A stretch of 64,000 nt of DNA from Anaerolineae bacterium (GTDB taxonomy: Bacteria > Desulfobacterota > Desulfobacteria > Desulfobacterales > ETH-SRB1): NCBI GenBank assembly GCA_035529315.1, contig DATKWZ010000016.1, forward strand, positions 88,464-152,463, read 5' to 3'. Of the stretch, positions 11,469 to 54,854 are shown piece after piece; position 1 is the first letter of the stretch, and each line of letters starts with the position of its first letter. The notes beneath the pieces were generated by a model. The model searched no databases. It was not told the origin of the DNA and saw nothing but the letters and a program-made list of their open reading frames with translations. A program made the position numbers and the translations under genes.

Positions 11469-11693
11469 CATTTAAGCCATTTGAAAAAAATTAGACAGGA
11501 TAACAGGATAAACAAGATAACAACAAAAAAAAAGGTTTTGTTCAGGCACTAATTATTAATTTTGGTGAACTAAAAATTAAAATCAAACGCAAAGTAAAAG
11601 ATTTTGATGAGGATTTACAAGATGGGTTTTGATGTTTTTTTTTAATCCTGAACATCCTGTTAATCCTGTCAAAGAACTCTCGAAGGGTAAAAT

Positions 11694-13061
11694 TTGGATC
11701 TGTTTGAATATAGAGCGCAGAAGGCATCAGCCGCATCAAAACCACTGGCCGAAAGGATGCGTCCGAAGAGTCTTGATGAATTTATTGGACAAAGCCATGT
11801 TGTGGGCAACGGGACTTTGATTCGTAAAGCCATTGAAAAAGACCGAATTTTTTCAATGATTCTCTGGGGGCCTCCTGGATGCGGGAAAACAACTCTTGCC
11901 AGGATTATTGCCAATGAAACCGGTTCATATTTTGTTCATTTCTCTGCTGTGCTTTCGGGCGTCAAGGAGATAAGATCTGTTATAGAAGATGCAAAAAATC
12001 AGCAAAAGCTTTACCAGAAAAGCACCATACTTTTTGTGGATGAAATACACAGATTCAACAAGGCTCAGCAGGATGCATTTCTTCATCATGTGGAAAGCGG
12101 CCTTATAACATTAATCGGTGCTACCACGGAAAATCCTTCCTTTGAAGTAATACCGCCTCTTTTATCCAGATGCCGCCTGATAATCTTAAATACCCTGTCA
12201 TCTGATAATATTGCGGCTATAATTGATCATAGCCTGAAAGACAGTGAAAGAGGCCTTGGAAAAATGAGCCTTGTGCTTGACAGGGATGCTCTCTTATTTC
12301 TTATACAAATCGCCGAAGGGGACGCCCGCATCGCGTTAAACAACCTTGAAATAGCGGCTTCTTTGCTCATGCCTGAAACAGAACCTGTTCAAAACGCGAC
12401 AACCGGGCATATAACTTTGCAGGTTATTGAGACAGCCTTGCAGAAAAAGGCTCTTTTATATGACAAGTCAGGTGAAGAGCATTTTAATCTTATATCGGCC
12501 TTTCACAAAAGCCTGCGGGGAAGCGATCCGGACGCGGCTATTTACTGGCTCGAGCGCATGCTGTCTGCCGGAGAAAACCCCTTATATGTTGCCCGCAGGA
12601 TGGTCAGGTTTGCATCCGAAGACGTGGGGAATGCAGATCCATATGCGCTCGGAATCGCTTTAAACGCCATGGAAGCATTTAAGTTTTTAGGACACCCTGA
12701 AGGGGATCTGGCTCTAACCCAGGCTGCTGTTTATCTTGCAACAGCGCCGAAAAGCAACAGTATATACACCTCTTCTAAAATGGTTAAAAAAGAGATTGAA
12801 AGTTCAGGCTCGCAACCTGTTCCGCTGCACATAAGGAATGCTCCAACCAGATTGATGAAAGAGATAGGGTATGGAAAAGATTACAAGTATGCGCATGACT
12901 ATGAAGAAGGATTTACTCCCCAGAACTATTTGCCGGAAAAACTCCAGAGCAGGTTTTACTACTCTCCGACAAACAGGGGATATGAAAAGACAATAAAACA
13001 AAGACTTGAAAAATGGCGGGACCTCAGAAAAATTAAGACTAAAAAGGAAATCAAAACATAA
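11694..13061 (+). CDS. rarA: replication-associated recombination protein A (AAA+ ATPase RarA/MgsA)
   Basis: LAERMRPKSLDEFIGQ, Walker A GPPGCGKTT, Walker B ILFVDEIHRFNK, and the MgsA C-terminal region YDKSGEEHFNLISAFHKSLRGSD. TTG start. Confidence 0.94.
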   Translation: MDLFEYRAQKASAASKPLAERMRPKSLDEFIGQSHVVGNGTLIRKAIEKDRIFSMILWGPPGCGKTTLARIIANETGSYFVHFSAVLSGVKEIRSVIEDAKNQQKLYQKSTILFVDEIHRFNKAQQDAFLHHVESGLITLIGATTENPSFEVIPPLLSRCRLIILNTLSSDNIAAIIDHSLKDSERGLGKMSLVLDRDALLFLIQIAEGDARIALNNLEIAASLLMPETEPVQNATTGHITLQVIETALQKKALLYDKSGEEHFNLISAFHKSLRGSDPDAAIYWLERMLSAGENPLYVARRMVRFASEDVGNADPYALGIALNAMEAFKFLGHPEGDLALTQAAVYLATAPKSNSIYTSSKMVKKEIESSGSQPVPLHIRNAPTRLMKEIGYGKDYKYAHDYEEGFTPQNYLPEKLQSRFYYSPTNRGYEKTIKQRLEKWRDLRKIKTKKEIKT

Positions 13062-13101
13062 ACCATACGGCTGAGACAGGAAAAGGGCATTTTTCAGCGG
13101 A

Positions 13102-13132
13102 ATCGTGATTCGTAAAATCAGCTGATCACGAT
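13102..13132. terminator. stem-loop between convergent rarA and acs
   Basis: atcgtgat-N15-atcacgat is an 8-bp perfect stem. The right arm overlaps the acs stop codon. There is no clean U-tract, so its function as a terminator is uncertain. Confidence 0.3.
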
Positions 13133-15156
13133 GTGACCCTCCTGATTTCATCAACGATTTCAGGATTAGCCAACGTAGATACATCACCTACGTCCTTTTT
13201 ATTTGAAATAGCTCCAAGCACCCTGCGCATGATCTTGCCGGAACGTGTCTTGGGCATGTCAGATACAAGCCAGACCTTTCTCGGCCTTGCAATCTTTCCT
13301 ATTGTGTCACAAATCTTTGCTGAAATCTTCATTGCCAGTTCATCGGTCGGCTCATATCCCGGCTTTAAAGAAATATACAGATCAGGGACAACCCCCTTTA
13401 TCTCATCGGAAACAGGAACAACGGCTGCCTCGGCAACCTCCATTACCGTAAGGGCGGCAGACTCGATTTCTTTGGTTCCCAGCCTGTGGCCTGAAACATT
13501 GATTACATCGTCAATTCTACCAAGAATACGATAGTATCCGTCTTCAGCATTCATAGCGGCATCGCCTGAAAGATACGGCCAGTCTCGCCAATCTTTACTG
13601 TTTTTGTCCTTGCAGTATTTTGCATAATAGGTTGAAACATATCGATCCCTATCTCCCCATATTGTCTGAAACGCGCCAGGCCAGGGATTCCTTATACAAA
13701 TGTTGCCTGCCCTGCCCTCTCCGGCCTTTATTTCATTTCCAAGCTCATCATAAATAATCGGATAAATGCCGGGTACTCCAGGGCCGGCGCTTCCAGGCTT
13801 CATCGGTTTTACTGCCGGCACGGTGCTGCAAAGAAACCCACCGGTTTCTGTTTGCCACCATGTATCAACTATTACAGCTTCATTCTTTCCGATCACCTTA
13901 TGATACCATCGCCAGACTTCGGGTTCAATCGGCTCTCCAACAGTTGTCATATGCTTAAAATGATGATTATACTTTTTAGGCAGATCAGGATCAATTTTTC
14001 TTAATGCCCGTATAACGGTCGGAGCTGTATGGAAGATGTTTATATCAAGCTCTTCCGCTATCCTCCATGCGCGGCCCGCATCAGGATAGGTGGGGACCCC
14101 TTCGTAAATCACCGTTGAGGCACATAGAGACAGGGGACCGTAAACTATGTATGAATGGCCTGTAATCCATCCAATATCAGCCATACACCAGTAAACATCT
14201 TCCGGATGGATATCCTGAATATACTTTGATGTACCCGTCACATAGGCAAGATAGCCTCCTGTGCTGTGCTGGCACCCTTTTGGTTTTCCTGTCGTACCGC
14301 TGGTATACATGAGAAAAAGAGGATCTTCAGCCGGCATTGGAACAGAATCTACCTTTTTCCCACGGTAATCTTTAAGTAAATCATTTATAAAATAATCACG
14401 TCCTTCAATCATCGGTGCAGGAGTTGAATTTTTCCCGGGATAACGTTGCCATACAAGCACCTTATTAACATTCTGGCCGTCCTTTTTTGCAAAATCAACA
14501 GCTATATCGGCATTTTGTTTATGGTCAATCAATTTCCCGTTTCTATAATAACCGTCAATGGTAATAAGCACTTTGCTTTTAGAATCAACTATCCTGTCTG
14601 CACACGCCTTTCCACTGAACCCTCCAAATACTTCACAGTGAATAACTCCGAGCCTGGCGCAGGCAAGCATTGTTATTGGGAGTTCAGCCGTCATAGGCAA
14701 ATGAAGTGTTACCGTATCTCCTGCCTTTAAACCCGCAAAATCCTGAAGAAGTGCCGCGACCTCGTTAACCCGCACATAAAGTTCCTGATATGTGATATGC
14801 TGAACCCGTTCGTTTTCAGGTTCCGGTACAAAATGAATGGCGGTTTTGTTTTTATTCTTCTCAAGATGCCTGTCAACGCAGTTGTAACACGCGTTTATCT
14901 TTCCGCCTGTAAACCATTTCCAGCACGGGGCATCGCTTGTATCCAAAACAGTATCCCACTTCTTGTCCCAGTGTAAAAGATCAGCATATTCCGTGTAACA
15001 TTCAGGGAAATTATCCAAAGCAAAACGCTCGTAAATTGTTTTATCCTTTATGTTGGCCTGTTCAATAAATTCTTTGGAAGGATAAACATATTCCTCCTCC
15101 TTCCAGTGAACAGCTATTTGAGCTTCTGATGTTTCTACTGCTTCATTTTTTGTCAT
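13126..15156 (-). CDS. acs: acetyl-CoA synthetase (AMP-forming)
   Basis: YTSGTTGKPKG AMP-binding motif, WWQTETGG, and C-terminal PKTRSGKIMRR. The start is moved to ATG 15156 (MTKNEAVETSEAQ...), preceded by tGAGGAGGttaatt. The 49-aa extension in the track ORF has no SD. Confidence 0.94.
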   Translation of the reverse strand: MTKNEAVETSEAQIAVHWKEEEYVYPSKEFIEQANIKDKTIYERFALDNFPECYTEYADLLHWDKKWDTVLDTSDAPCWKWFTGGKINACYNCVDRHLEKNKNKTAIHFVPEPENERVQHITYQELYVRVNEVAALLQDFAGLKAGDTVTLHLPMTAELPITMLACARLGVIHCEVFGGFSGKACADRIVDSKSKVLITIDGYYRNGKLIDHKQNADIAVDFAKKDGQNVNKVLVWQRYPGKNSTPAPMIEGRDYFINDLLKDYRGKKVDSVPMPAEDPLFLMYTSGTTGKPKGCQHSTGGYLAYVTGTSKYIQDIHPEDVYWCMADIGWITGHSYIVYGPLSLCASTVIYEGVPTYPDAGRAWRIAEELDINIFHTAPTVIRALRKIDPDLPKKYNHHFKHMTTVGEPIEPEVWRWYHKVIGKNEAVIVDTWWQTETGGFLCSTVPAVKPMKPGSAGPGVPGIYPIIYDELGNEIKAGEGRAGNICIRNPWPGAFQTIWGDRDRYVSTYYAKYCKDKNSKDWRDWPYLSGDAAMNAEDGYYRILGRIDDVINVSGHRLGTKEIESAALTVMEVAEAAVVPVSDEIKGVVPDLYISLKPGYEPTDELAMKISAKICDTIGKIARPRKVWLVSDMPKTRSGKIMRRVLGAISNKKDVGDVSTLANPEIVDEIRRVTS

Positions 15157-43035: not shown

Positions 43036-43113
<78 letters not shown>

Positions 43114-43220
43114 AATAAAGTCAAGGGGTTACGAACAATTAACAATCCCTTTTTAAATGGGTAAAATTCAAATTCCAACCTCATTTCCAACCTATAAAAA
43201 CAATTTGTGGGTAATCAATT

Positions 43221-44054
43221 ATGGCAACCTACAGAAGAAAAAAAGATAGTGACACATGGCATTCGCATAAGGAATGCTCTAACTGGCCCATATCGGATTA
43301 TCAAGAACCAACAAGATATTGCAAAAAGTGTAACGAGTGTGTAGCTCTGGAGAAATTTGACAAGCAAGCACAAGATTTGCATGATACATCACCGCTGAAA
43401 AACATCCCGCATTGGTATATAGACTTAAGGTTTGATAATACTTTTAACGCTGATCCTAATCATATTTTAAGTCTTGAGACATACTGGGAAACAATAAGAT
43501 CATGTTCCTATATTTCGGCAGGTTATTATCGTCCTCATGTAAACTTAACACAAGGCTCTTATAGTCACAATAAAGGAACAGACGGTAAAGGAACAAACTG
43601 GATAGATTCACAGGATAACAATGAACTCATTGAATATTGGCGATTTCACAGCAACGGTCAATTTGTGCATTTCCTTTCAATTGAGGCCGAAAAGCAAAAC
43701 CAAATTGGAATCAATTCCATTAATAATACTATCAGAGACATTTTTAACTTTGCTGGCACATTAGCACAACATCTTAATGCCACCGCCTTTATTAAAATCC
43801 GAATAGTAAATATAAAAGGGTTCGTTCTTTATCAAGACGGGGGGTTACCTGTGTTTATTAATTCTTACCCAGCCTTTGAAGATCCTTGTCTTAATCCGAT
43901 AAAGCTGGACAAGACAGCCCTAACCTCTAAAGATATGGATAAACTCGCACGGGGAGCCACAGCTTCGATTTTTAAAAGCTTTAACGTTAATAATATCACA
44001 GAAAAAACTTTAAAGAAAATACAAAAAGATTTAAGGCCCCGCCATCTTGCTTAA
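43221..44054 (+). CDS. hypothetical protein with N-terminal Cys/His-rich motif (island cargo)
   Basis: 277 aa. The N-terminus is WHSHKECSNWP...YCKKCNEC. I recognise no family for the rest. It is followed by a strong terminator. Confidence 0.6.
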   Translation: MATYRRKKDSDTWHSHKECSNWPISDYQEPTRYCKKCNECVALEKFDKQAQDLHDTSPLKNIPHWYIDLRFDNTFNADPNHILSLETYWETIRSCSYISAGYYRPHVNLTQGSYSHNKGTDGKGTNWIDSQDNNELIEYWRFHSNGQFVHFLSIEAEKQNQIGINSINNTIRDIFNFAGTLAQHLNATAFIKIRIVNIKGFVLYQDGGLPVFINSYPAFEDPCLNPIKLDKTALTSKDMDKLARGATASIFKSFNVNNITEKTLKKIQKDLRPRHLA

Positions 44055-44094
44055 GATTAACCATCTCACTTATTTTGAAGGCCAGATAATAAAA

Positions 44095-44131
44095 CCCGGG
44101 CTCCATCACTGGAATCCGGGCTTTGATTTTT
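44095..44131. terminator. bidirectional rho-independent terminator between convergent cargo genes
   Basis: aaaaCCCGGGCTCCAtcacTGGAATCCGGGctttgattttt: an 11-bp stem with one mismatch. A-run on the left and T-run on the right. Confidence 0.7.
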
Positions 44132-44152
44132 AGGCTCGCCTATTGTGATCTG

Positions 44153-44938
44153 TTATTTTTTAACCTTCCTCCTGAACCTTGAAAAACCAAACAAACCAGA
44201 ACCTACAAGAAATATTGTGGCGGGTTCGGGCACCGGAGTGCCTGCTGCTACTCTTACCAAGTCAATGGACTCAGATCCAAAATAGGAAGTACCCCAACCA
44301 CCATTATAGGCATAATGCCAGAATGATATATTAACTCCACCAATAGAAGTGATCGCTGGTAGTGTTAATAGTGATGAATTGTTCCATAAATATTCAATCG
44401 TGTTGCCTTCCTGTATAATATCTATATCTGCTGATCCTGCTTGAGGAAAATAATCACCACGTATATAAACACCTTCTCGATATCTACCACCCACAGAAAT
44501 AAGCCCTATTCCGAAATCCATAGCCCATGGATCACAATATCCTATTGCGGTTAAAAATTTGTTCTGTGTATCAAAAAGCTCTATAAAAACAGCTTGCATA
44601 GCAAGAACCGTCTCTTGCCCTTGGCTGTTTTGGGAATCCCATGAAATATTAAAATCTATATGGAAATCAGAAAGCGGGGAAAAAGTTCTTGAAAGATTTA
44701 CTATACCCCAAGGAGTAACAGGGCCAGAACTTACATCAATATCCTGGACATCTGTAACAATAAGGTTTGTGCCTGATTCACTATAATCCCAACCCGCAGC
44801 ATTCTCAAAAGAGATTGTCCAAGCTGGGCCTAAAACCCCATTATTAAAATCATCTTCAAGGATAAGAACTGCCTCCGAAGATCCCACGGAACCTATCACA
44901 ATCAATATTGCGGAAAAAAACACCCAAAATTTTTTCAT
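44153..44938 (-). CDS. PEP-CTERM-anchored secreted protein with LamG/jelly-roll-like domain
   Basis: Signal peptide MKKFWVFFSAILIVIGSVGSSEA. DDFNNGVLGPAWT. C-terminal VPEPATIFLVGSGLFGFSRFRRKVKK, which is a PEP-CTERM sorting signal. The start is moved to ATG 44938 after GGGAGGAAAcgaaca. Confidence 0.8.
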   Translation of the reverse strand: MKKFWVFFSAILIVIGSVGSSEAVLILEDDFNNGVLGPAWTISFENAAGWDYSESGTNLIVTDVQDIDVSSGPVTPWGIVNLSRTFSPLSDFHIDFNISWDSQNSQGQETVLAMQAVFIELFDTQNKFLTAIGYCDPWAMDFGIGLISVGGRYREGVYIRGDYFPQAGSADIDIIQEGNTIEYLWNNSSLLTLPAITSIGGVNISFWHYAYNGGWGTSYFGSESIDLVRVAAGTPVPEPATIFLVGSGLFGFSRFRRKVKK

Positions 44939-45007
44939 TGTTCGTTTCCTCCCATTTATATATTTCGGTACTAACAAAGGAAGTAACAAAGCAAAATCGC
45001 CTGTATT

Positions 45008-45367
45008 TTATTTTTTATACCCTTCCCGCCTCCAGTTTTTATCATAAAAGGTTTCTTTGCCATCTTGCCTTTTAATATATCCGGTTCGGTTTCCGTTTTG
45101 GTCATAAGTTGTGCCGGTGTTATTATCCCAAACAGTTTTGCCGGTTCTGTTTTGATCTTGATCGTATTTAACAACCTCGTCATCTTTATAAATGCTGTGG
45201 CCGGTTCTATTCCAGTTTTTATCAAAGTGTGTTTCTTTGCTGTCCTCAATAACTGTATAACCGGTCAAATTGTGTTGCTGGTCATATTGCCTTATTGTTT
45301 CACCTGCAAAAACACCTTCGGCACAAAAGAAAATCATTAAAATAATAAGAAATAAAAACTTTTTCAT
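45008..45367 (-). CDS. small secreted protein made of five ~20-aa YD-like repeats
   Basis: Signal peptide MKKFLFLIILMIFFCAEGVFA. It is followed by 5 repeats of the form x[YF]D[QK]xxNRTG[YHK] (YDQQHNLTGY, FDKNWNRTGH, YDQDQNRTGK, YDQNGNRTGY, YDKNWRREGY). SD cAGGAGGtcgcggc. Confidence 0.7.
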   Translation of the reverse strand: MKKFLFLIILMIFFCAEGVFAGETIRQYDQQHNLTGYTVIEDSKETHFDKNWNRTGHSIYKDDEVVKYDQDQNRTGKTVWDNNTGTTYDQNGNRTGYIKRQDGKETFYDKNWRREGYKK

Positions 45368-45393
45368 GCCGCGACCTCCTGAATTATCTTAAT

Positions 45394-45422
45394 ATTATAA
45401 TCTCATTATCAGGTAAAAGCAA
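45394..45422 (-). promoter_or_regulatory. sigma70-type promoter for the YD-like / PEP-CTERM cargo operon
   Basis: The minus strand reads TTGCTT-N17-TATAAT, ~25 nt upstream of the ATG at 45367. Confidence 0.5.
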
Positions 45423-46021
45423 TTTTTTAACCTGCTATAACTATAAAATAACCCTTTTTATCGAAAGAAAAAGATAATTTCAGCCAAAACATCAAAACCA
45501 CCTTTTCCTAAATACATTTTTTACGCCATAGATATTCTGTAATCTCAATAGGTTGGCTGAATCTGAACCCCCGATTTAACCATATTTCTGTAATAACTAT
45601 CATAATATCGGAAAAACGCCGGAAAGCCTTTATTGATAAGGGGTTACAGTAAGTTTATATTCACTTTTAAGCCTGTTTTTAGCTAAACAATAGCTGCAAT
45701 CAGTCCGATCTTATTAAAAAACAGTAGTCAGCAAGCATATAAGACTTAATGGCTTGATATTACTGAATAATAAGCTTGTTTTAGGGCTGTAATTTCCGGC
45801 ATCCCTACTAACCTTGCAGATATACTAAAACATCATAATTACAGCATGTTAAACGTGATTTTGAATTGACTACAATACAAAGCAAAGACAGCAACCGCCA
45901 GATTGACTACAAACAGAATTTTTATAAAAGAAATGGCATTAAAACAAGGGGTTGCGACAAGTCGATTTTTCAGAAATTGCCGGAATTTCGAGGGGTGCAG
46001 TATTGCAAGATGTGTGTCAAG

Positions 46022-46050
46022 TTGACAAAAATCAAAGGGGTGGGTATATT
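46022..46050 (+). promoter_or_regulatory. near-consensus sigma70 promoter firing into an ORF-less segment
   Basis: TTGACA-N17-TATATT on the plus strand. The -35 hexamer is also an iteron-like AGTTGACA. Confidence 0.45.
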
Positions 46051-47332
46051 ATATATTTATATATCAAGTAGTTATAATGTATTGTTTATTTTGTAGTCAT
46101 GGAATGCCTGAAGGTCAAGACGGGTTATAATATTTCATTAACCACCTGAACTGCTATCTATAGCAAGTATATGGTTCTTTAAGTGTAACCATAATACCCA
46201 TAAGGTTTTACCCTTGGACTCGCTCTGTCCCTGTTGTATTGATACCCTCCAGTATCAAAGCCGACCGACCATGCCTTGATATGTTTATTATCTCTGCATC
46301 CTGCCCTTGCCTGTCTGTTGCAATCATTAAGCTGTATAGCCAGGGACAGGCTGCTTATAGGCAGGCATAAAGGGTATATACCTATTGAGTTTATATATGC
46401 CTTTTGTTTATTATTGATCTTGTTATCAAGATAAAGACAGATATAATAAACCTGTTTAACCTTCTTGATCACAGATAAAAAGATCACCTATCCGGCATCT
46501 TTTTCCCAAAAAACCAAAACAGTAAAATTTATCAATTATCACCATGTTTTTACATAGCTATCAAACTAACTTATTATAATTGTTTAGTATAATAACGACA
46601 AGCCTTGTAAAGCCTTGCTATACCTATAATCCGCTGTAAAGCCTTACAATACATAGTATTACAAAGGAATGCTGAAGACAAAGACTTTATAAGGGATAGG
46701 TAGTAATATGTTTAATGATATTGACAAGTTACAAAGCAGTAAAATAAAGCATTTGCCGTCCGATAACAGCTATTATGTAAACTTTCGTAAATTGCAGGCT
46801 GCTAAACGTTGAAAATAAAGGCTTTGGGAAAGTGCTTATAATGTCCGATAAAAAAACAAATAGCCGTTTATTTTATTCAGGTCAACGAATATTATGCAAT
46901 ACAAAAAACTAAGATCACAAATATAAAATGTTTCTTTCCGGTATCACTACAAGGTTAATGACGTAAGGATAAAAAAAACTAAACACAATATATTGATATA
47001 TCTTTAAATCAGTTACTATATATTGTGTTTTTGTGTGCCAAAAGTCGCATAATTAGCTATAATTAAGTATAATTATAACTGTTATGATGGGTTTTGCCTA
47101 TCACACCCTTTCAAAGTGTTTCAAAATGAAACATAAGGTTGTATAAGATTATAAAGCAGGATTCGGGCATATTTTAAAAATATCTTCCATATCCTGGCAG
47201 GAAAATATAAATATTAATTTCGGGAGTTTTTAGCAGGAAAACATGTTAACCGCGATTTGTTTTTGTCCTTGCGGTAAAATGTTATAAAATTGATATGTTT
47301 TGCTACGAAGATTCGAATCATAAAATACAATT

Positions 47333-47525
47333 AGTTGACCAGTTGACAACCCCCAGAGGGGGGGGTTGTCAACAACTGGTTTGGAATAAAAAAGTTGACT
47401 AAAATTCTTGTTATTATTTAAAGTAAAAACAATATGTTATATAATACCAGTTGACTAAAGTTGACCAGCTTGTTGACTTGTCAACTCGGTTGACTCAGTT
47501 GACTAAAAAGTTGACTAAAATTCTT
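47333..47525. repeat. iteron cluster / putative origin of replication of the element
   Basis: Eleven GTTGAC hexamers in ~190 bp: nine direct and two inverted. A 13-bp perfect palindrome, GTTGACAACCCCC-agaggg-GGGGGTTGTCAAC, lies at 47342-47373. An exact 21-mer, aaaaagttgactaaaattctt, occurs at 47389-47409 and again at 47505-47525. Confidence 0.75.
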
Positions 47526-49410
47526 ATCCGTTTGCGGTCATAAATCCTGATTGCGTGAGTTTGTTTTTTTGACTTAGCAAACCATCTTTAATAGCCTTTT
47601 TACGGATACGGCTGATATATGCCTTGTCAATTCCTAATATATCTGTAATTTCTGTTTGTGATAATCCTTCGTCAAGCAATTTTAATATTTCGGTTTTAGT
47701 TTCCGCCTTAATATTTCCGTATGTCCAAATATGGTTTTTATTCTCGTCAAGGGTAAGTTTAAACTCTTGATCCGATAATAAATGCAAACATTTTGTATCA
47801 ACTCTATTTTTACCAAATTGCAATATAAAACGTGCCCCATCTTCAGGGACATAATTATAAGGAGCTTTCAGCATTATACTTGTGTCAAGGTTGTCCTCAC
47901 GTGCGGAAGTCCCCCTTTGCCGTCCATCTTTAGATACATGGTGCAATAAAATTGTGCTGATTCCACAAAATCTTAACTCTAAAAGCCATTGATTTATAAT
48001 ATCCCAATCCTGCTTAGCGTTTTCATCAAGACCAGGCGCTAAGCTTGCGATATTGTCAACTACCCACAATTTGACATGCCTGCTTATTAAAATTTCCTTC
48101 ATAAGGTTTCGCCAGTCAACATCAACAAGTGACGCCCTATGCAGTCCCATTGAATTTGCATAAGCATCAGAATAAAAAAGCAGTGGATTTTTACGGGCTG
48201 AATGAAGTTTTAAATTTTCGATTCGATCCCGATCGTCTCTGATTGTCATTTCACCATCCAGAAACAAGCAGGAAACTGATTTTTTGCACTCCCAAGGGCC
48301 AAAATTTGAACCTCTTGAAACTGCGTCCAGTATTCCAAGGGCAAGCCAGGTTTTGCCGCATCCCCTCCATCCTGATATAAGATTAATCGAATCTTCTTTT
48401 AACCACGGAAATAAAAGCTCCTGCTTTTCCGGCACGTCTATTTTATAAAATTCATTTGCTGATAATATTATATCATTAATAGTGATTTTTTTAGGCGGTT
48501 CATAAATTTCGGCATTTTCAATTAAAATTGAAAACCGCTCCGCTGCTTCGTCCAAGTCGTCAAAACTGTCAAGCCAGTCAGAAAAATCGCCCCCCTCAGA
48601 CAATCCAGGCAATTCCAGTAACTGAATATTCTTTGCTATGTTTTTTATATTTTGAAAAACTTTTTCAATATGCTCGCATCCGGGTTTGTCATTGTCTGGC
48701 ACCAGTATAACTTTCTTGTTTTTGAAATATTGATTTAAATCCTCAGACCAGTTCCCGGCCCCGGCAACATTGCAAGTACCTGTGAAATTCAGCCTTCCCG
48801 CATTATTGCAATCTTTTTCACCTTCAAAAACAAAGACGGTTTCTGCATCAATAACCTTTAACAGGTTGTAAGGCACTTTCGGTTTAATACCTTTAGTTGA
48901 CCATTTCAGCCCATCCGCACTGCATTGTCTGAAGGTCTTAGGCTCAAACCTACAGTTGTAATAAAGAACTTTGCCATTTGCGTTTACATAAGGATATTTT
49001 TCAATCGGAGATCCCAACTCGTAATGCTCAAACGGGTTTGTTTTCTTGTAAGTAGTTTTGACCAACTTTAAACCAGGCATGTATCTTTTAAACAGCTCCT
49101 TGATATTCGTATCTGCAAGCCAGGCATGAAAATCAACTATATCGCCCCCTTTTTCATTACATTGACGGCACCAAAATCGTTGTTGATCTGTTCTAAAAAC
49201 AAAACGATCATTTCCGCCGCATTTAGGGCAAGGCCCGCAAAGGCTGTTTTCCGATTCTTTGCGTAAGTTCTTAACAGCCTCCGGGATGCCCGGAAGCATT
49301 GATTTTAAGGCATCAATACTGCCTTTGCTGTTTTGCACAAAATTTAAAGTCTTCTCTTCCGGATTTTCGTCAAAATTAAAATTTAATTTTTTCACATTAT
49401 TTTTTTTCAT
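47524..49410 (-). CDS. bifunctional primase / replicative helicase-like ATPase (Zn-ribbon + TOPRIM + RecA-like AAA_25 + C-terminal HTH)
   Basis: Zn ribbon CPKCGGNDRFVF...WCRQC. TOPRIM VFVFEGEKD ... LVPDNDKPG. Walker A SGWRGCGKTW. Walker B KLWVVDN. C-terminal LSQTEITDILGIDKAYISRIRKKA. The start is moved to ATG 49410 after gtGGAGGttataatt. Confidence 0.88.
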   Translation of the reverse strand: MKKNNVKKLNFNFDENPEEKTLNFVQNSKGSIDALKSMLPGIPEAVKNLRKESENSLCGPCPKCGGNDRFVFRTDQQRFWCRQCNEKGGDIVDFHAWLADTNIKELFKRYMPGLKLVKTTYKKTNPFEHYELGSPIEKYPYVNANGKVLYYNCRFEPKTFRQCSADGLKWSTKGIKPKVPYNLLKVIDAETVFVFEGEKDCNNAGRLNFTGTCNVAGAGNWSEDLNQYFKNKKVILVPDNDKPGCEHIEKVFQNIKNIAKNIQLLELPGLSEGGDFSDWLDSFDDLDEAAERFSILIENAEIYEPPKKITINDIILSANEFYKIDVPEKQELLFPWLKEDSINLISGWRGCGKTWLALGILDAVSRGSNFGPWECKKSVSCLFLDGEMTIRDDRDRIENLKLHSARKNPLLFYSDAYANSMGLHRASLVDVDWRNLMKEILISRHVKLWVVDNIASLAPGLDENAKQDWDIINQWLLELRFCGISTILLHHVSKDGRQRGTSAREDNLDTSIMLKAPYNYVPEDGARFILQFGKNRVDTKCLHLLSDQEFKLTLDENKNHIWTYGNIKAETKTEILKLLDEGLSQTEITDILGIDKAYISRIRKKAIKDGLLSQKNKLTQSGFMTANG

Positions 49411-49553
49411 AATTATAACCTCCACACGGGTCAGTTTTTGGGGTGGGCGCGCAAGTGTGTGGCCTTACGTGCCCATTAACGCCGCCGGGCGAACCCCAAG
49501 AATTAATTGCTTTGCCTCCCGTGCGGGATTAGCTAAAATTCAAATCTTGAATG

Positions 49554-49922
49554 TCAATTTTTAGAAATTATTAAATCCATATTCAGCACAACCGGGGACG
49601 CATTTGCTTCTTTCGCTTTGAATTTCGCCCATACAGTGCTAATAATCGAAGCATTGAACCTGTCACGGCTTGCATTTCCGACACTTGATTTAAAAGAAGT
49701 ATGAATAGCCGTTGCATTTGCAGGAGTATAAAATGTTTCGTCAGGTGTATCGCCCACTTGATATGTCACTGCTACGTTGCCGCCGCCGGAAGCATTAAGA
49801 TCAGCAAAATATTTTGTTTTCGGCCCACATTTGCCAAGATATATTGGAGTGGCCAGAACAATACTCGCATTCTTTGCAATTGTTCTACTTGAAAATATCG
49901 TTATTTTTTCTGTAAGTCCCAT
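49554..49922 (-). CDS. hypothetical protein, 122 aa (island core)
   Basis: ORF with SD aAGGAAAGGAAAatttccatt-ATG. No family recognised. Confidence 0.55.
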   Translation of the reverse strand: MGLTEKITIFSSRTIAKNASIVLATPIYLGKCGPKTKYFADLNASGGGNVAVTYQVGDTPDETFYTPANATAIHTSFKSSVGNASRDRFNASIISTVWAKFKAKEANASPVVLNMDLIISKN

Positions 49923-50077
49923 AATGGAAATTTTCCTTTCCTTTTGTTGTTGTTGTTGTGACGAACCGAACCAGAAACAGTCCGATTCGTCACGGATGGG
50001 CGGTCATTCGGAGGTGAACCCTAATCGCCGCCCAAGGAGGGATAATAAACTGGCCGAAGTCCCATCCCACGTTCAGA

Positions 50078-50266
50078 TTATAGTCTATTTTTTAGGCGCA
50101 AAATCAGGCATTGCCCGCTCTTTGTTTCGACTTTCACCCCTGATTCAAAGGCAACAAAGTCAAGGATATCGTCCTGCAATTCAAGTTTTTCGACTAAAAG
50201 GTTGACGTCGATTTTGTAAATTCCGGCGATTTTTTCGAGCTCAAATTTGTTTAGATTATAAAGCAT
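50078..50266 (-). CDS. hypothetical small protein, 62 aa
   Basis: The track ORF starts at 50284. ATG 50266 (MLYNLNKFELEK...) is preceded by aAAGGAGAttgagt. Confidence 0.45.
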   Translation of the reverse strand: MLYNLNKFELEKIAGIYKIDVNLLVEKLELQDDILDFVAFESGVKVETKSGQCLILRLKNRL

Positions 50267-50414
50267 ACTCAATCTCCTTTGCATTTTAAAAGTGATAGGG
50301 AGAGGCCGTTGACGTATGAAAACGGCCCAGCCCTTTTAAAGGCAGCAGCTGTAACGGCTCCCACGAACAGAAACAGCTGCGCCCATTGGCGCATCCGGTA
50401 CGCCCATGCATAAC

Positions 50415-51548
50415 TTATTTGCCTTGGCCGATCATCTGGCCGATTTCATAATCGGCTTTTGATTCCTGCATTTTGGGCATTGTCAAAATCTGCCTGCGCC
50501 GTATATCGGCCAACTCCGTGACTTTGCGGCTTATGCCTTTTGCTTTTTCTTCCTGAAGCCAGTTTGAAGCTGTCTTTGCTTCCTCGCTGAAATGCAAGAG
50601 GCAAGCATCTTCAAGAGCCTTCAACTCCGGCAAATCCTTTGCTCTCTGGATATCTTCGGCAACCGCTTTTAAGCTATTCATGGCAGTAATGTTCCTTTCG
50701 GTTTTTATAGTGCCGGAATATTTGCCTTTCAGACGAGTCAACAAACTATCCCATGATTCAATCCGATCCGCCAAACCCACATCTATTGCTTGCTCCCCGA
50801 TAAAAAGACGCCCCTGACCCATTTGTTTGTCCGCAACATCGGCAGTCACGCCCCGGTTTCTTGCAATGTCCTGGATCATCAGTCCATATAAAAAATCAAG
50901 TTTGCCTTGGATATTTTTTTCATCATCTTTACTCAATGGGTTGTACTCATTGCCAACTGCTTTGAATTTGCCAGCTTTAAGCACCGTGGGTTTGAGTCCT
51001 TTTTGTTCGTATGCTGCTGAACGATCCATGTGCAGACCGATAATGCCGATACTTCCAGCTTGCGCCGATTTGTCGGAAATAATTACTTCGTGTGCTGCGG
51101 AAGCAATAAAATACGCCGCTGAAGCTGCGAGGCCATTGCAAAAAGCAATTATTCGCTTTTTAAGCCTTGATTCATAGATTAGGTTAGTGAAAACCATCAA
51201 ACCACTTACGTTGCCCCCTGGAGAATCCACATCAAGTAAAATCGTTTCAACCGCCGGATCTGCAAGAGCTTTTTGAAAATCCCTGCCCGCAATTTCGTAA
51301 CTCGTGCCACCACTTGCAGCCGCTATAATATTCATTCTTTTTGCCAACGTGCCGTAAATTTTTATAAATGCAATGCCGTTTTCGACCTTATATCTATTTT
51401 CCGCTTGGCCCGCATCTGCCAGCGATAGTTTTGCTTCTATATCCTTCAATTCGCCAAGCTGTTTAGCTTCAACCACTTGTAAAATTTCTTCCAGTTTGTC
51501 AGGGGTGATAGCCCAGGCAGAATTAATCATCAAATCATATAATTGCAT
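50415..51548 (-). CDS. S49-family serine peptidase (phage prohead/head-maturation protease type) with C-terminal extension
   Basis: VDSPGGNVSG and CNGLAASAAYFIASAA (Ser nucleophile context), followed by a ~100-aa helical tail. SD tAGGAGGttttaaaaatt. Same family as SppA and the lambda gpC-type proteases. Confidence 0.8.
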   Translation of the reverse strand: MQLYDLMINSAWAITPDKLEEILQVVEAKQLGELKDIEAKLSLADAGQAENRYKVENGIAFIKIYGTLAKRMNIIAAASGGTSYEIAGRDFQKALADPAVETILLDVDSPGGNVSGLMVFTNLIYESRLKKRIIAFCNGLAASAAYFIASAAHEVIISDKSAQAGSIGIIGLHMDRSAAYEQKGLKPTVLKAGKFKAVGNEYNPLSKDDEKNIQGKLDFLYGLMIQDIARNRGVTADVADKQMGQGRLFIGEQAIDVGLADRIESWDSLLTRLKGKYSGTIKTERNITAMNSLKAVAEDIQRAKDLPELKALEDACLLHFSEEAKTASNWLQEEKAKGISRKVTELADIRRRQILTMPKMQESKADYEIGQMIGQGK

Positions 51549-51563
51549 AATTTTTAAAACCTC

Positions 51564-52043
51564 CTAAATAAAATATATTTCAGCCGAAGCCTTTAACGGC
51601 AGGCGTTCGCAAAGTTCTTTGTCTTCTCCTATTAAGGCCGTCCATTGTTTATTAAGATTTTCCCTCATCGCTATAAGCCCTTCGCGGTCTTTTATTGCTT
51701 TTAAAACCCTTTCGACCGCCCGTGCCTTTCTGTCTTCAAAGTTTTTTGCCTCTTTCTGAAGTTGGTAAAAATCCAAAACACAATTTAAAACGGATATTTG
51801 CCGTTCCAAGTCTTTCAATTGTGTTTCAATCTCAATTTTCTCATTCTCCAATTTTTCAATTTTCTTCTGTAATTTTTCAACCTGCAATTTATTATAATCG
51901 AAACTTAAGCGGATATTTTTATATTCCGATTCATCCGAAGCCGCCTCAAGCTTAACCTCAAGCGCATTTACTTCCGTTTGGAATACTTCCAGTTCAGCCG
52001 TAAGCTTTTGGATCTGTTTTTCAATAGGTATGTTATCCTTCAT
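51564..52043 (-). CDS. coiled-coil protein, 159 aa
   Basis: Heptad-rich sequence (LTAELEVFQTEVNALEVKLEAA..., KLQKKIEKLENEKIEIETQLKDLERQISVL). Confidence 0.6.
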   Translation of the reverse strand: MKDNIPIEKQIQKLTAELEVFQTEVNALEVKLEAASDESEYKNIRLSFDYNKLQVEKLQKKIEKLENEKIEIETQLKDLERQISVLNCVLDFYQLQKEAKNFEDRKARAVERVLKAIKDREGLIAMRENLNKQWTALIGEDKELCERLPLKASAEIYFI

Positions 52044-52061
52044 AATTTTTTCTCAAACCCC

Positions 52062-52643
52062 CTATTCATTTATTTTTTTCAAAAGAGCAACTTTTTTCTC
52101 GACCAGTCTATCCTTACTGTCCTGTGCGTCTTCAAAGGAAAGAGAACACCAAGTTTTTAAATCGCCTTTATCGAAAGGCTTTCCCGGCCTTTTTAATTTC
52201 TGAGATTGTGCAAGCTGCTGATCTGCCCGCATTTCTGAAAGATTTTTCTCCAAAGTTCTTAAGGCATCTTCTCGAAGTTTTAAAAAATCCTCTTCGGTTT
52301 TTACAGCCACCACTGCCGCCTCAAGGCGTTTCTCGTGGATTTTGCAAACCGCATCATAGCAATCTTGCAAAAATTTGTGAAAGCTGCTGTCCGAACTTCG
52401 GGAAGCAAGCAAATTCATTCTTTCAAGATTGAGACTATAAATTTCAATAAAAAATTTACCCTCATCAATACCGCACCGGCCAGACTCGCGGTTGTCATAG
52501 AAAATATGCTGGCATGTGTCGGCTAATTTTTTTTCGCAGTAATATTTATTATGTTTAGACAATTTCACACCTGGCAGCCCCTTTTGCCGCCGTGCTTCGG
52601 CCTGTTCTTCTTCCGTCAAAACTCTTATATTAGGCTCATACAT
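52062..52643 (-). CDS. hypothetical protein, 193 aa
   Basis: Its start overlaps the upstream gene stop (TAATG coupling). No family recognised. Confidence 0.55.
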   Translation of the reverse strand: MYEPNIRVLTEEEQAEARRQKGLPGVKLSKHNKYYCEKKLADTCQHIFYDNRESGRCGIDEGKFFIEIYSLNLERMNLLASRSSDSSFHKFLQDCYDAVCKIHEKRLEAAVVAVKTEEDFLKLREDALRTLEKNLSEMRADQQLAQSQKLKRPGKPFDKGDLKTWCSLSFEDAQDSKDRLVEKKVALLKKINE

Positions 52644-52879
52644 TATAAAACTCCCTTCAAAATTTCATTAATATCAACATTTTTGTATCCTGTCTTTTTT
52701 AAGCTTTTTATCGTCAAGAGCCGCTCAATGGTTGTTTCCGGCCAGTAATTACTTGCGCCATATCGGCCAAAAGACTTAAACTGTGGCACTGGTAGCCAGC
52801 CAGCCTTGACATATCGGGAAATGGTTTTACTGCTCAATCCCGTCATCTGCATCAATTTTTTTGTTCTTAATATCTTCAT
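52643..52879 (-). CDS. MerR/excisionase-like HTH protein, 78 aa
   Basis: LRTKKLMQMTGLSSKTISRYVKAGWLP is an HTH pattern. Confidence 0.6.
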   Translation of the reverse strand: MKILRTKKLMQMTGLSSKTISRYVKAGWLPVPQFKSFGRYGASNYWPETTIERLLTIKSLKKTGYKNVDINEILKGVL

Positions 52880-52928
52880 TTAAAAGTCCAAGTGTAGAAG
52901 TCAAAAGGTCAAATTTTTTTGCCTCTGC

Positions 52929-53120
52929 CTACAGCGCACCGGTTTCGATCTTGTGTGCTTCCATCCAATCAAGAACATCCTGCAATAGATATCTGACTGA
53001 CCGCCCCATCTTCACGTAAGGGAAGCCCCTGCCGCAATGTCTATCGTTGCGCAAGGTTTGCAAGGCACGGCATGTTATTTCGCAGACTTGTTTTTCGTTA
53101 ATATACTTTTTCATAGACAT
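52929..53120 (-). CDS. AlpA-family excisionase / transcriptional regulator
   Basis: YINEKQVCEITCRALQTLRNDRHCGRGFPYVKMGRSVRYLLQDVLDWM is the pattern of phage AlpA/Xis (HTH_17) proteins. It is adjacent to the integrase. Confidence 0.7.
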   Translation of the reverse strand: MSMKKYINEKQVCEITCRALQTLRNDRHCGRGFPYVKMGRSVRYLLQDVLDWMEAHKIETGAL

Positions 53121-53382
53121 TCACCCCATCAAATTTGTTTTCTTTTCTCCCAAAATGATGAAAACAAATGATTGTTTCAATCTTTTTTTGAAGATCACTG
53201 TTTTACTTTGCAATATTTTGGCAGTTGAAAACCTATAAGGCTAATAATATCAAGCAGATAATAGAAATTGAAATAATATAGGGTAAAGCAAAGGAAAAAG
53301 AAGTATGGTATTTTGTCTAAATTAAGGACTGGGGTGTGGTATTTACTAAAAAAATAAGGGGGGAATTTACTTCTTTAAAGGT

Positions 53383-54525
53383 TCACGGTCTTCCGATTTT
53401 GGATATATTTTTTACAGCATCGGCAACGATATTACCGGCCAGATTTGAAGCTGCCACAAGTGTTTCGTCTTGCAGGTGTGCATATCTCTGTGTCATTGCA
53501 GGGCCTTTGTGGGTTAGCAGTTTCTGGAGGGTGTACATATCGACCTTGCCTGAACTGGCAAGCATTGACGCAAAGACATGGCGAAGGCCGTGCAAGGGCC
53601 GGAACTTTGCAGGCAATCCAGCTTTTCTTTTTATCTTATTTATGGGTTTTGAAATATTTACTAACTGCTTGCCCTCACGTCCCGGAAATATAAAAGGGCT
53701 TTCCGTTCGTGGGTGATTTTTAAGCAGTTCTCTTGCGGCATCGTTCAGGGGGATTACTTGATCAGTGCCGCCCTTGGGATCTACAATATTTATAAATCCA
53801 CGGTCAAAATTAACGTGTTCCCATTTCAGTTTCAGCATTTCGGATCTTCTCATTCCAGAAAATAGCGCAAGTTTCATTATAGGCCCAGCTTGCGGGTGTA
53901 TGTCGTTATCAATGGCCTTCAATAAGTCTTTTATTTGTTCAGATGTTAAATCTTCAGTAACCAGGTTTGAGACTGTAGGTTTTTTGATACGGAAGGGAAG
54001 CCCAGGACATAAACCTTTTTTAATACCAAAGTTTGCGATCCAGGTGAGAAGGTTAAGAACATGTTTTACGGTTTGCGGTGATTTCTCTTTTAAAAGCTTT
54101 ATTCTAAGCCGGTCAATATCCAAGGCTAAAATATTTTTAGGTTCGGTATCACCAAAAGGGGCTTTCAAATACTTTTCATATCGGCCTAAATCAGTTTTAA
54201 GACTTTTGCCAGGTGTCCTGCCTTTGATATATTCATCAAAAAGCCTTTGGATTGTCAACTTGTCGGCCTCAGCCTCTTTGAGGGCATGCTCTTGTTTACG
54301 TTTCGCCTTTCGGGTTAATCTTTTGCCTTCGATTAATTCTGACCGTATATGTGCCGCCCTGGCCGGGGTCATGTCATCAGCATATTGACGCCCTGCTTTT
54401 TCTTCAAAAAGTTTGCCTTCCTTTTTATAGACAACATAAAAAACTTTTTCGCTCCCTTTGCCACCGATTCTTTTTGATTCCCGAAAAAATACCCCAGGAT
54501 ATGTTGTTTTTTTTCGCTTTGACAT
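53383..54525 (-). CDS. tyrosine-type site-specific integrase
   Basis: Catalytic residues in context: LFSGMRRSE (Arg), HGLRHVFAS (His-x-x-Arg) and TQRYAH (Tyr). N-terminal SAM-like domain. It lies ~280 bp inside attR. Confidence 0.93.
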   Translation of the reverse strand: MSKRKKTTYPGVFFRESKRIGGKGSEKVFYVVYKKEGKLFEEKAGRQYADDMTPARAAHIRSELIEGKRLTRKAKRKQEHALKEAEADKLTIQRLFDEYIKGRTPGKSLKTDLGRYEKYLKAPFGDTEPKNILALDIDRLRIKLLKEKSPQTVKHVLNLLTWIANFGIKKGLCPGLPFRIKKPTVSNLVTEDLTSEQIKDLLKAIDNDIHPQAGPIMKLALFSGMRRSEMLKLKWEHVNFDRGFINIVDPKGGTDQVIPLNDAARELLKNHPRTESPFIFPGREGKQLVNISKPINKIKRKAGLPAKFRPLHGLRHVFASMLASSGKVDMYTLQKLLTHKGPAMTQRYAHLQDETLVAASNLAGNIVADAVKNISKIGRP

Positions 54526-54804
54526 AAAACCTCCAATATTGTATTAATTGGATTATAATTTTAGCCGGAAACCTGTTTAACCCTCTGTGTTTACATGATA
54601 AATATTTCTTTGGTTTCCGGCTTGCAAGTCCCAAAGTTGGAAAAAGGCGGGAATTACTTTCCAACCCTATTTCCAACCTTTTTTCTATATATCAGAGTAA
54701 AAAAAAGTAAGTCAAGAAAAAAAGAAAAAAATAAATACTGTGATATTAATATGATATTAAGGGGGTTTAGTAAAAGAAGGTAAAAAGAGGTAAATTTAAG
54801 CTTA

Positions 54805-54854
54805 CGGCCTGTCAAGCCGGAGGTCGCGAGTTCAAGTCTCGTCACTCCCGCCAT
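54805..54854 (+). repeat. attR core (orphan copy of the tRNA-Asp 3' part)
   Basis: Identical to 43064-43113. The sequence in front (aaatttaagctta) has no tRNA 5' half. Confidence 0.92.

Follow-up and report, generated by a model that had tools for sequence, protein, structure and literature searches.

A putative phage satellite with a scaffold-like tail on its prohead protease in a Desulfobacteraceae-like host

We analyzed a 64,000-nt stretch (the window) of contig DATKWZ010000016.1, positions 88,464 to 152,463, from assembly GCA_035529315.1, which is deposited as an Anaerolineae bacterium and placed by GTDB in the Desulfobacterota (Desulfobacterales, ETH-SRB1). The window contains an 11.74-kb island (window positions 43114-54854), delimited by a perfect 50-nt direct repeat of a tRNA-Asp 3' end, which probably represents a phage satellite integrated in a Desulfobacteraceae-like host and belonging to a family not described before. 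In the broad sense of an element that depends on the phages described below for its spread, we consider satellite status likely, a judgement that adds to this best explanation the case of packaging as concatemers, which is weighed with the other alternatives. The specific mechanism by which a short competing scaffold would lead to small capsids is put forward tentatively. A previous sequence-only reading of this DNA had interpreted the island core as a satellite and not as a prophage or a plasmid. That interpretation is now supported by the conservation of the island family, by an S49 protease and a 122-aa protein (p122) that match phage genes, and by a scaffold-related tail on the protease, and nothing that we found supports a prophage, a plasmid or an integrative mobilizable element (IME). 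The features that bear on these points are:

43064-43113, plus strand: attL, the 3' 50 nt of tRNA-Asp(GTC) (gene 43036-43112), 100% identical to 54805-54854
54805-54854, plus strand: attR, the duplicated tRNA-Asp 3' end
50415-51548, minus strand: 377-aa S49 prohead-type serine protease with helical tail (PF01343, 5.5e-27; phrog_53 head maturation protease, 4e-83)
50415-50681, minus strand: putative nested open reading frame (ORF) for the tail alone, 88 aa, from in-frame Met290 (conserved Met and Shine-Dalgarno-like sequence)
49554-49922, minus strand: p122, an all-beta jelly-roll protein, homologue of a gene in a phage virion gene block

The protease tail and phage scaffold proteins

The S49 domain of the island protease spans residues 1 to ~280 and is followed by an island-specific helical tail of ~90 aa, which the sequence-only reading had already recognized. 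In an alignment to SppA of B. subtilis (3RST), Ser143 (GLAAS) and Lys191 (LKAGK) fall on the catalytic dyad; the kept dyad and the PF01343 and phrog_53 matches place the protein in peptidase family S49, and judging from these residues the enzyme is apparently active. Homologues that matched over the full length, tail included, formed only ~16 clusters, and the tail alignment (A2) had a mean column identity of 66% across three protease clades.

The S49 protease of the related phages (L018 9410-10387, 325 aa) has no tail and carries a ~52-aa N-terminal extension absent from all island proteases; the island and phage enzymes may differ in their modes of procapsid targeting. In the phage, the S49 gene is followed by a gene for a 312-aa coiled-coil protein, in the position expected of a scaffold. 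The island tails end in ...RRRQIL-x-P-x-I-x(5)-[DE]Y[EDA]LG[QR]xIG and the phage coiled-coil proteins in ...RRAKL[FL]KTGEIK-x(n)-EEY[AD]LGQ[AK]IG[RA]GNVIPI, with the tip Y-x-L-G-x-x-I-G shared by both. When a tail profile was compared with the phage scaffolds using hhalign, its last 29 residues aligned with E-values of 4-5e-5 and a probability of 67-70%. A distant sibling island, L059, found on an 18.6-kb metagenome contig, encodes a 380-aa protein of the coiled-coil family described below, then a 214-aa and a 230-aa protein. Residues 2-110 of the 214-aa protein resemble the phage scaffold N-domain (E 8e-21) and residues 129-214 correspond to the island tail, being 52% identical to that of the window (E 1e-24), while the 230-aa protein resembles the scaffold C-terminal half (E 4e-16) and ends in GYELGKKIGKG. 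This chimera therefore suggests that the tail is a short alternative to the scaffold C-terminal half that can be mounted on a helper protease or on a scaffold N-domain, and it is the strongest evidence that the tail would be a scaffold-type module.

CpmB of the satellite SaPI1 is a 72-residue helical dimer that has only a C-terminal motif in common with the scaffold of phage 80alpha, with which it competes for one and the same capsid-protein site while altering capsomer angles, so that small capsids result (PMC5644958). The island tail is likewise short and helical (~90 aa) and shares only its C-terminal tip with the scaffold of the putative helper, which would make it a CpmB-type factor by mechanism, not by homology.

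Of 14 homologues, 13 have a Met at the tail start, and in each of the five islands for which DNA was available a purine-rich Shine-Dalgarno-like sequence (AAAGGA/AAGGAG) lay 10-13 nt upstream of it, which suggests that a nested start could yield an 88-93-aa mini-scaffold product. In phage lambda, the Nu3 scaffold is nested inside gene C, which encodes an S49 prohead protease, with an in-frame internal start. The island gene appears similar in that its 3' third encodes a scaffold-type domain with such a start. The lambda pair, however, is phage-borne, whereas here the putative helper has a tail-less S49 protease and a separate scaffold gene, and the fusion is specific to the islands. In the relative P0086 (479 aa), the S49-tail ORF continues into a homologue of p68, the next core protein, as a single product, which may reflect read-through, a frameshift or a sequencing error.

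Exchange of protease and p122 alleles with uncultivated phages

The p122 family comprised 73 clusters, none of them annotated, in two contexts. One is the islands; the other is a virion gene block in uncultivated, siphophage-like phages with a tape-measure protein gene. The protein that the sequence-only reading had listed as a 122-aa unknown is thus present but is no longer without relatives. The phage loci with p122 and the lengths of their contigs are:

L001: 35.6 kb
L005: 101.7 kb
L009: 13.7 kb
L013-L016 (IMG/VR): 20-43 kb
L046: 95 kb
L048: 35 kb

The gene order of the L015/L018 type is terminase (749 aa), portal (505 aa), S49 (325 aa), 312-aa coiled-coil, 265-aa and 443-aa proteins, and then methyltransferase and glycosyltransferase genes, a 123-aa protein, p122, lysis genes and tail genes; in L018, size, order and coiled-coil content, with no hidden Markov model (HMM) confirmation, are the basis for naming the terminase, portal and scaffold. 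The phage scaffolds measure 312-321 aa, and the 443-aa protein is likely the capsid protein (weak phrog_29 match on the L013 orthologue).

When all ORFs of seven phage loci were compared with the window and its siblings by tblastn, only S49 and p122 matched, the genes for which are located within or beside the head genes of one group of uncultivated phages. The p122 of the window is 80-81% identical to those of phages L013, L014, L046 and L048 and 54-58% identical to those of other islands, while the p122 proteins of islands L007, L021, L023 and L025 are 79-86% identical to that of phage L015. Similarly, the S49 domains of L021, L023 and P0087 share 72-74% identity with the L018 protease and 42-46% with that of the window. 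For both genes, island-to-phage identity (74-86%) exceeds island-to-island identity (42-58%), indicating that islands repeatedly exchange both modules with specific phage lineages. Since L025 combines a window-type protease (83%) with an L015-type p122 (86%), the modules track phage lineages and not island lineages. Such exchange is what would be expected of islands that each have to match a particular helper. The dN/dS ratio was ~0.1 for p122 as well as for S49. One ENA sample, ERZ27256828, yielded both phage contig L048 and an identical copy of the island (L010). The 50,697 deposited phage genomes of INPHARED yielded homologues of neither p122 nor the 443-aa capsid protein.

In the phages, p122 lies after the glycosylation genes and a beta-rich protein of similar size, before the lysis and tail genes, and it accompanies two different head modules (L046 versus L048). 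Its AlphaFold2 model (predicted local distance difference test score, pLDDT, of 84) is a jelly-roll beta-sandwich, for which Foldseek searches of PDB and BFVD returned generic jelly-roll, lectin or TNF-like folds and no named phage protein. Decoration, neck or fibre proteins are candidates for its role in the phages.

p122 also contains six N-A-S/T tripeptides, two of which (N18-A19-S20 and N107-A108-S109) were invariant in 43 homologues. Fibre-like neighbour proteins in the phages are rich in NAS repeats (L013 3596-7840, L015 5063-8587, L046 5587-9549, L005 3974-7604), and a large methyltransferase-glycosyltransferase and Gtf3-like enzymes are encoded beside those genes. The tripeptides and the enzymes together may point to virion glycosylation at N-x-S sequons. 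In L005 (101.7 kb; 10375-13766), genes for a 564-aa protein, bAvd and a reverse transcriptase come immediately after the p122 homologue, an arrangement resembling a diversity-generating retroelement whose target would be a probable receptor-binding protein.

Island backbone, sibling islands and chromosomal setting

The other core features of the island are:

53383-54525, minus strand: tyrosine integrase (PF00589, 5e-29; phrog_1, 2e-58)
52929-53120, minus strand: 63-aa HTH_17/AlpA/excisionase-like protein (PF12728, 1.4e-3, below the cut-off; phrog_66 excisionase/regulator, 2e-5)
52643-52879, minus strand: 78-aa MerR_1-type helix-turn-helix (HTH) protein, DNA-binding domain only (PF13411, 8e-8)
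52062-52643, minus strand: p193, N-terminal half of a ~360-aa family, aligning with the N-terminal half of fused homologues
51564-52043, minus strand: cc159, C-terminal coiled-coil half of the same family, matching the C-terminal half of 340-380-aa relatives
50078-50284, minus strand: p68, a small conserved protein of the core (62 aa if read from the second ATG), no family matches
47524-49425, minus strand: 633-aa primase-helicase (PF13481, 3e-25; phrog_239 DNA primase/helicase, 3.5e-27)
47333-47515, plus strand: iteron array, putative replication origin (AGTTGAC repeats and a GC-rich palindrome at 47336-47372)

The core ORFs, all of them intact, follow one another on the minus strand as int, AlpA-like HTH, MerR-like HTH, 193 aa, 159 aa, S49-tail, 68 aa, 122 aa and primase-helicase; beyond the latter come the iterons and, left of the putative origin, a non-coding stretch of ~2 kb followed by three cargo genes. 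Every gene of the string from int to primase-helicase that the sequence-only reading had proposed was recovered by ORF listing and HMM scans, on the same strand and in the same places. The coordinates it had given, 47524-54525, hold for the core but not for the whole element, which the att repeats extend to 43114-54854, and its 62-aa ORF exists but measures 68 aa from the first ATG, with 62 aa counted from the second ATG or by gene callers. The repeats behind its proposed iteron origin were likewise confirmed: the 64-kb window has 12 AGTTGAC copies, of which eight are packed in 183 nt (47333-47515) directly after the helicase stop, and this position next to the helicase gene supports the origin reading. 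A single further copy of the GTTGAC-containing origin sequence (47336-47366) was observed at 46015-46045, 1.3 kb from the array and within a conserved non-coding block. P4 has an ori/crr pair, and the spacing of the additional copy recalls that arrangement.

The AlpA-like protein is a weak Pfam match (19.3 bits against a cut-off of 27 bits) and is 68-75% identical in sibling islands, compared with 51-67% for the MerR-type protein and 66-80% for the primase-helicase, which consists of a Zn ribbon, Toprim, AAA_25 (RepA/DnaB-like) and a C-terminal winged HTH. As predicted from these domains, the backbone of integrase, two HTH proteins, primase-helicase and iterons would permit excision and replication of its own.

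At least six further islands from several metagenomes share the core from int to primase-helicase, with core protein identities of 42-80%: L007, L021/L022, L023, L025/L026 and the identical copies L010-L012, which were recovered by p122 and S49 searches, and the distant L059. In those recovered by p122 and S49 searches, the genes run in the order int, HTH_17, MerR, 193+159 or fused 363-374 aa, S49-tail, 64-69 aa, 121-122 aa and primase-helicase. The islands are small and uniform in size (~11-13 kb), and they keep this core while protease and p122 alleles swap. L007 has the same 50-nt att at both contig ends, and L021 has a 49-50-nt att near one contig end and a tRNA-Asp gene at the other; in all, three of the further islands show this att or end in a tRNA-Asp gene. 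Among GTDB genomes, the p122 profile had no match, and the primase-helicase profile retrieved a single related island, without the hijack module, in a Desulfobacteraceae metagenome-assembled genome (MAG; L027).

The ~360-aa coiled-coil family had 43 representatives at 50% clustering, most of them fused and mostly 340-380 aa long. The gene is fused in L007 (2237-3361), L021, L023 and L059 (363-380 aa) and split in the window (193+159) and in L025/L026 (195+173), which form a clade with the window-type protease. Because the split is conserved, it is probably functional and not a frameshift error. In the AlphaFold2 model of a fused homologue (P0196, pLDDT 87), a small alpha/beta N-domain is joined by three long helices (64, 52 and 100 residues) and a conserved, extended C-terminal segment; the Foldseek matches were unspecific coiled coils, with no specific PDB match and no fold resembling Sid, TcaP or CpmA. 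The protein might act, as Sid or TcaP do, as an external scaffold or one that sets capsid size, although nothing we found supports such a role. When PDB sequences were searched with profiles of p122, the tail and the 360-aa family, nothing meaningful was returned. The small protein p68 is 46-55% identical in L007, L021 and L023 and had no Pfam or PHROG match.

On the chromosome, where tRNA-Asp was called with ARAGORN and Rfam, the island is flanked by Lon, tRNA-Val and tRNA-Asp on one side and by NifX-like and NAD-kinase genes on the other, the NifX-like gene terminating exactly at the attR repeat. Lon of the host shares 82% identity with its counterpart in a Desulfobacteraceae MAG (JAUVHU010000007.1), in which the Lon-tRNA-Val-tRNA-Asp locus holds another island of ~9.7 kb (L027 7325-17148). 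That island has a 72% identical int, a 61% identical AlpA-like protein and a 780-aa primase instead, and no S49, p122 or coiled-coil module was found in it. The same att site is therefore a hotspot common to several island types.

Non-coding DNA and a conserved 28-nt motif

Between the origin and the cargo genes, the following features were identified:

45368-47332, no strand: gene-free stretch of ~2 kb with conserved blocks 45485-45680, 45892-46104 and 46404-46930
46404-46930, minus strand: conserved non-coding block A, 76-80% nt identity to L007 and L023
46757-46784, minus strand: invariant 28-nt motif AAGTTTACATAA-N6-TTATCGGACG in block A, candidate packaging-region or late-control signal

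L007 and L023 likewise contain a ~2.4-kb gap without a called gene, and the three blocks have 68-78% nt identity among islands. Small-ORF matches fell on both strands and in several frames, hence the conservation of the blocks is taken as non-coding, and block A was rejected as a coding region on the same pattern. It was also rejected as a structured RNA after RNAalifold gave no covariation support from the three sequences compared. An Rfam search of the island (E <= 1) returned tRNAs and a sub-threshold tmRNA-like match at attR only. In L023 (9587-10016), block A has the opposite orientation with respect to the core genes, and it is absent from L021/L022, where a serine resolvase/invertase gene is present (L021 9461-10171), which hints at an invertible or cassette-like segment.

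The exact 28-nt pattern occurred in 16 IMG/VR contigs (loci L030-L045) that are otherwise dissimilar and differ widely in GC content. In at least 10 of the 16, it lies 0.3-2.5 kb upstream of a large-terminase gene, in either orientation, and in five to six it lies within 0.9 kb of a contig end. The neighbouring terminases belong to different PHROG families, and one phage has the motif between terS and terL. This distribution suggests that the motif may be a signal of the packaging or late-operon region, such as a cos/pac site, late promoter or operator. A sigma-28 promoter, a Fur box, an IHF site and a sequencing adapter were set aside on grounds of spacing or orientation. No nucleotide similarity indicative of cos/pac mimicry was found between the non-coding DNA of the island and the available phage loci.

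Comparison with known mobile elements

At Pfam, PHROG and PADLOC sensitivity, none of the 12 island ORFs was identified as a capsid, portal, terminase, tail, lysis or conjugation gene, in agreement with the absences that the sequence-only reading had listed. That reading had named capsid, portal or terminase homologues among the unknown ORFs as the mark of a degraded prophage, and relaxase or coupling functions as that of an IME. HMM searches and tblastn found none of the capsid, portal, terminase, tail or lysis genes of a tailed prophage, and Pfam scans of the 12 ORFs found no relaxase, type IV coupling protein or type IV secretion system domain that would indicate an IME or an integrative and conjugative element (oriT was not searched for). 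Further phage genes or pseudogenes were detected neither by tblastn with the ORFs of the seven phage loci nor by small-ORF analysis of the non-coding region. PADLOC found no defence system, its matches being coiled-coil or HTH noise, and PLSDB contained only remote partial matches to the replicase, the best covering 39% of the protein at 27% identity.

With P4-like satellites and Gram-negative PICIs (e.g., EcCICFT073), the island shares integration in a tRNA gene, a size of ~11-12 kb (P4 has 11.6 kb), a putative iteron origin and cargo at one end, and it appears to have a comparable int-alpA-type HTH-primase/helicase backbone, of which the integrase is clear. It differs from them in having no Sid, Psu, Delta, Epsilon, Ppi/Rpp or TerS and in its Toprim + AAA_25 replicase. 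No island ORF matched Sid, Psu or Delta in Pfam or PHROGs, the coiled-coil model had no specific PDB match, and the psu-delta-sid operon that marks P4-like elements is accordingly missing. Among the PICI hallmarks, functional analogues of int, the alpA/stl-type regulator and pri-rep were found (Pfam, PHROGs), while terS and cpm/ppi/rpp were not, the Cpm family having no match in Pfam or PHROGs. The sequence-only reading had compared the island with capsid remodelling by P4 Sid/Psu or by PICI Cpm; the Cpm logic gains from the scaffold-type tip of the tail, whereas the Sid/Psu side has no homology behind it. It had also relied on int-alpA-primase as an established satellite signature. Such a backbone appears to be present, but it makes a weak argument, as under SatelliteFinder three of the five PICI components (int, alpA and primase) define Type C, which its authors excluded as ambiguous (PMC10085698). 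By those rules the island would fall outside the P4-like, cfPICI and Type A/B PICI groups and would score at most as a Type C PICI.

Like SaPI1, with its helper 80alpha, the island is an integrated element of the ~12-15-kb kind with int, regulators and a primase-replicase. Unlike SaPI1, it has no homology to CpmA/B, Stl or TerS, its motif is not RIIK, its mini-scaffold is fused to a helper-type S49 protease (to a scaffold N-domain in L059), its host is a Gram-negative member of the Desulfobacterota, and redirection of capsid size is a proposal for the island. A phage-derived prohead protease gene is shared with cfPICIs, from which the island differs in having no capsid protein, portal, head-tail adaptor/connector, TerS/TerL or HNH (Pfam, PHROGs, tblastn). 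Going by published descriptions, it resembles some marine VEIMEs (module 2; PMC9618062) and the Vibrio plasmid satellite TG93 (PMC13230959), which are small elements with a serine or head-maturation protease and an incomplete capsid set, and TG93 also in its MerR-like regulator. However, VEIMEs are defined by their presence in virions, and TG93 has genes for a capsid protein and TerS but lacks an integrase; neither shows the architecture of the island. As the sequence-only reading had supposed, we found no literature description of a satellite family in Desulfobacter-type hosts.

Proposed mechanism and alternative explanations

The S49 protease with its tail, the ~360-aa coiled-coil protein (split here), p68 and p122 would form the morphogenesis module of the island, for which we propose the following sequence of events. 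A helper with the 443-aa capsid protein would infect the host or be induced in it. The tail, tethered to the protease or as the free 88-aa nested product, would then bind the capsid protein through its C-terminal Y-x-L-G-x-x-I-G tip, and this short scaffold would compete with the 312-321-aa phage scaffold that carries the same tip. Assembly would be redirected to small capsids with room for 11.7 kb and not for the phage genome, and the fused protease would mature these small shells. p122 would supply a helper-compatible virion component, and packaging of the island would rely on the helper terminase and on a cis site, for which block A with its 28-nt motif is a candidate. A more general scheme, to which we give slightly less credence than to the small-capsid mechanism itself, is that such islands carry a short competing scaffold on a swappable helper-derived handle (prohead protease or scaffold N-domain), together with p122, the 360-aa partner and allele exchange that follows helpers, with the 28-nt signal marking the region near the terminase in many unrelated phages and serving as a broadly used packaging or late-control site.

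Several points weigh against the satellite explanation as proposed. The similarity between tail and scaffold spans just ~29 residues at a modest hhalign probability. The ~360-aa protein and p122 had no informative structural match, so that their roles are guesses, and p122 could be a neck, decoration or glycosylation-block protein rather than one that controls capsid size. As for packaging, the indications are indirect, namely the shared helper-type genes and the co-occurrence in sample ERZ27256828. No homology to terS, Ppi/Rpp or cos was detected, the candidate helper L018 has no copy of the 28-nt motif, and the island family was not found in IMG/VR, where the primase-helicase profile retrieved no sibling island. 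Excision, induction, helper dependence and encapsidation are predictions of this explanation. Finally, two phage contigs of 95 and 101 kb serve as our reference for phage size, and about eight island copies would roughly fill one such head if these contigs are near genome length.

This last figure leads to the alternative that we consider rather unlikely, though the strongest of those weighed, namely a satellite that does not redirect capsid size and travels as head-full concatemers (~8 x 11.7 kb) in normal helper capsids, as do marine VEIMEs and PICMIs, with the protease-tail and p122 used for interference or compatibility, for example by delivery of the protease into helper procapsids. VEIMEs are indeed packaged as helper-length concatemers and some encode serine proteases without capsid genes (PMC9618062), and the coiled-coil protein has no Sid-, TcaP- or CpmA-like fold. 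Nevertheless, the tail carries the scaffold tip and replaces the scaffold C-terminal half in L059, which is hard to explain unless it takes part in shell assembly, and the eightfold match depends on phage contigs that may be incomplete. Alternatively, the island could be an integrative anti-phage (decoy or abortive) element, not itself transmitted in virions, whose phage-derived copies would poison the assembly of incoming phages and whose replication would only raise their dose. Helper-matched alleles of two phage head-block genes would suit this purpose, and procapsids could be degraded or wrongly assembled by a protease whose targeting tail is altered. In addition, IMG/VR did not yield the islands, and known satellites also serve as defence elements. 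We nevertheless judge it improbable: PADLOC gave no model beyond coiled-coil or HTH noise, elements that leave the chromosome typically have what is seen here, an integrase, a Xis-like protein, an autonomous replicon and a small uniform size (~11-13 kb) at a tRNA att, and interference and piracy can coexist.

Two other origins appear much less probable. The plasmid-like primase-helicase and iterons, and the int-alpA-pri island without a morphogenesis module at the tRNA-Asp site of the Desulfobacteraceae MAG (L027), would fit an IME or integrated plasmid that is moved by conjugation or not at all and acquired its phage genes by chance. This is very improbable given that no ORF has a relaxase, coupling-protein or secretion-system domain, that the replicase has no close plasmid relative (39% coverage, 27% identity), and that the phage-derived module, conserved and subject to purifying selection, varies together with phage lineages across six or more islands. 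A decayed prophage remnant could account for a prohead protease and one homologue of a phage virion-block gene, but hardly for the rest. The same compact, intact gene set recurs in several samples with dN/dS ~0.1 and the catalytic Ser/Lys kept, which makes decay very unlikely, and no other phage gene or pseudogene turned up (tblastn with the seven loci, small-ORF analysis).

To our knowledge, satellites are well characterized in few families (P4-like, PICI/SaPI, cfPICI, PLE and PICMI), nearly all from culturable Proteobacteria and Firmicutes. If the satellite explanation is correct, their range would extend to sediment sulfate-reducer-type Desulfobacterota, and a mini-scaffold tethered to a helper-type maturation protease would be a new way to hijack capsid assembly. 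Swapping of protease and p122 alleles could offer a sequence-only means of pairing satellites with helpers in metagenomes. The analysis also uncovered a group of uncultivated phages, with two contigs of 95 and 101 kb and some members with glycosylation genes beside virion genes, and revealed a 28-nt motif associated with terminase genes. The proposal can be tested directly by co-expressing three or four genes.

Cargo genes and a second context of the island

In one metagenome contig (L010), an 11.69-kb stretch is 100% identical to the island, but the DNA flanking it on either side is unrelated (L010 1-165 and 11858-13215). One flank carries tRNA-Val(GAC) and a threonyl-tRNA synthetase gene, and the divergence starts 48 nt before attL. 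This context could be a tandem or alternative one, a recombinant or an assembly chimera. At the left end, three cargo genes were identified:

43221-44054, plus strand: 277-aa protein, no Pfam, PHROG or PADLOC match
44153-44989, minus strand: secreted PEP-CTERM protein (PF07589 PEP-CTERM, 3e-7)
45008-45367, minus strand: 119-aa repeat protein with signal peptide, no family match

The PEP-CTERM protein likely starts at an ATG (MKKF) near 44938, giving 261 aa, which is also the length called on the identical contig L010. A homologue of the 277-aa protein, 36% identical, is found at the same end of L007, and the 119-aa repeat protein has counterparts of 46-56% identity in L007, L021 and L023.

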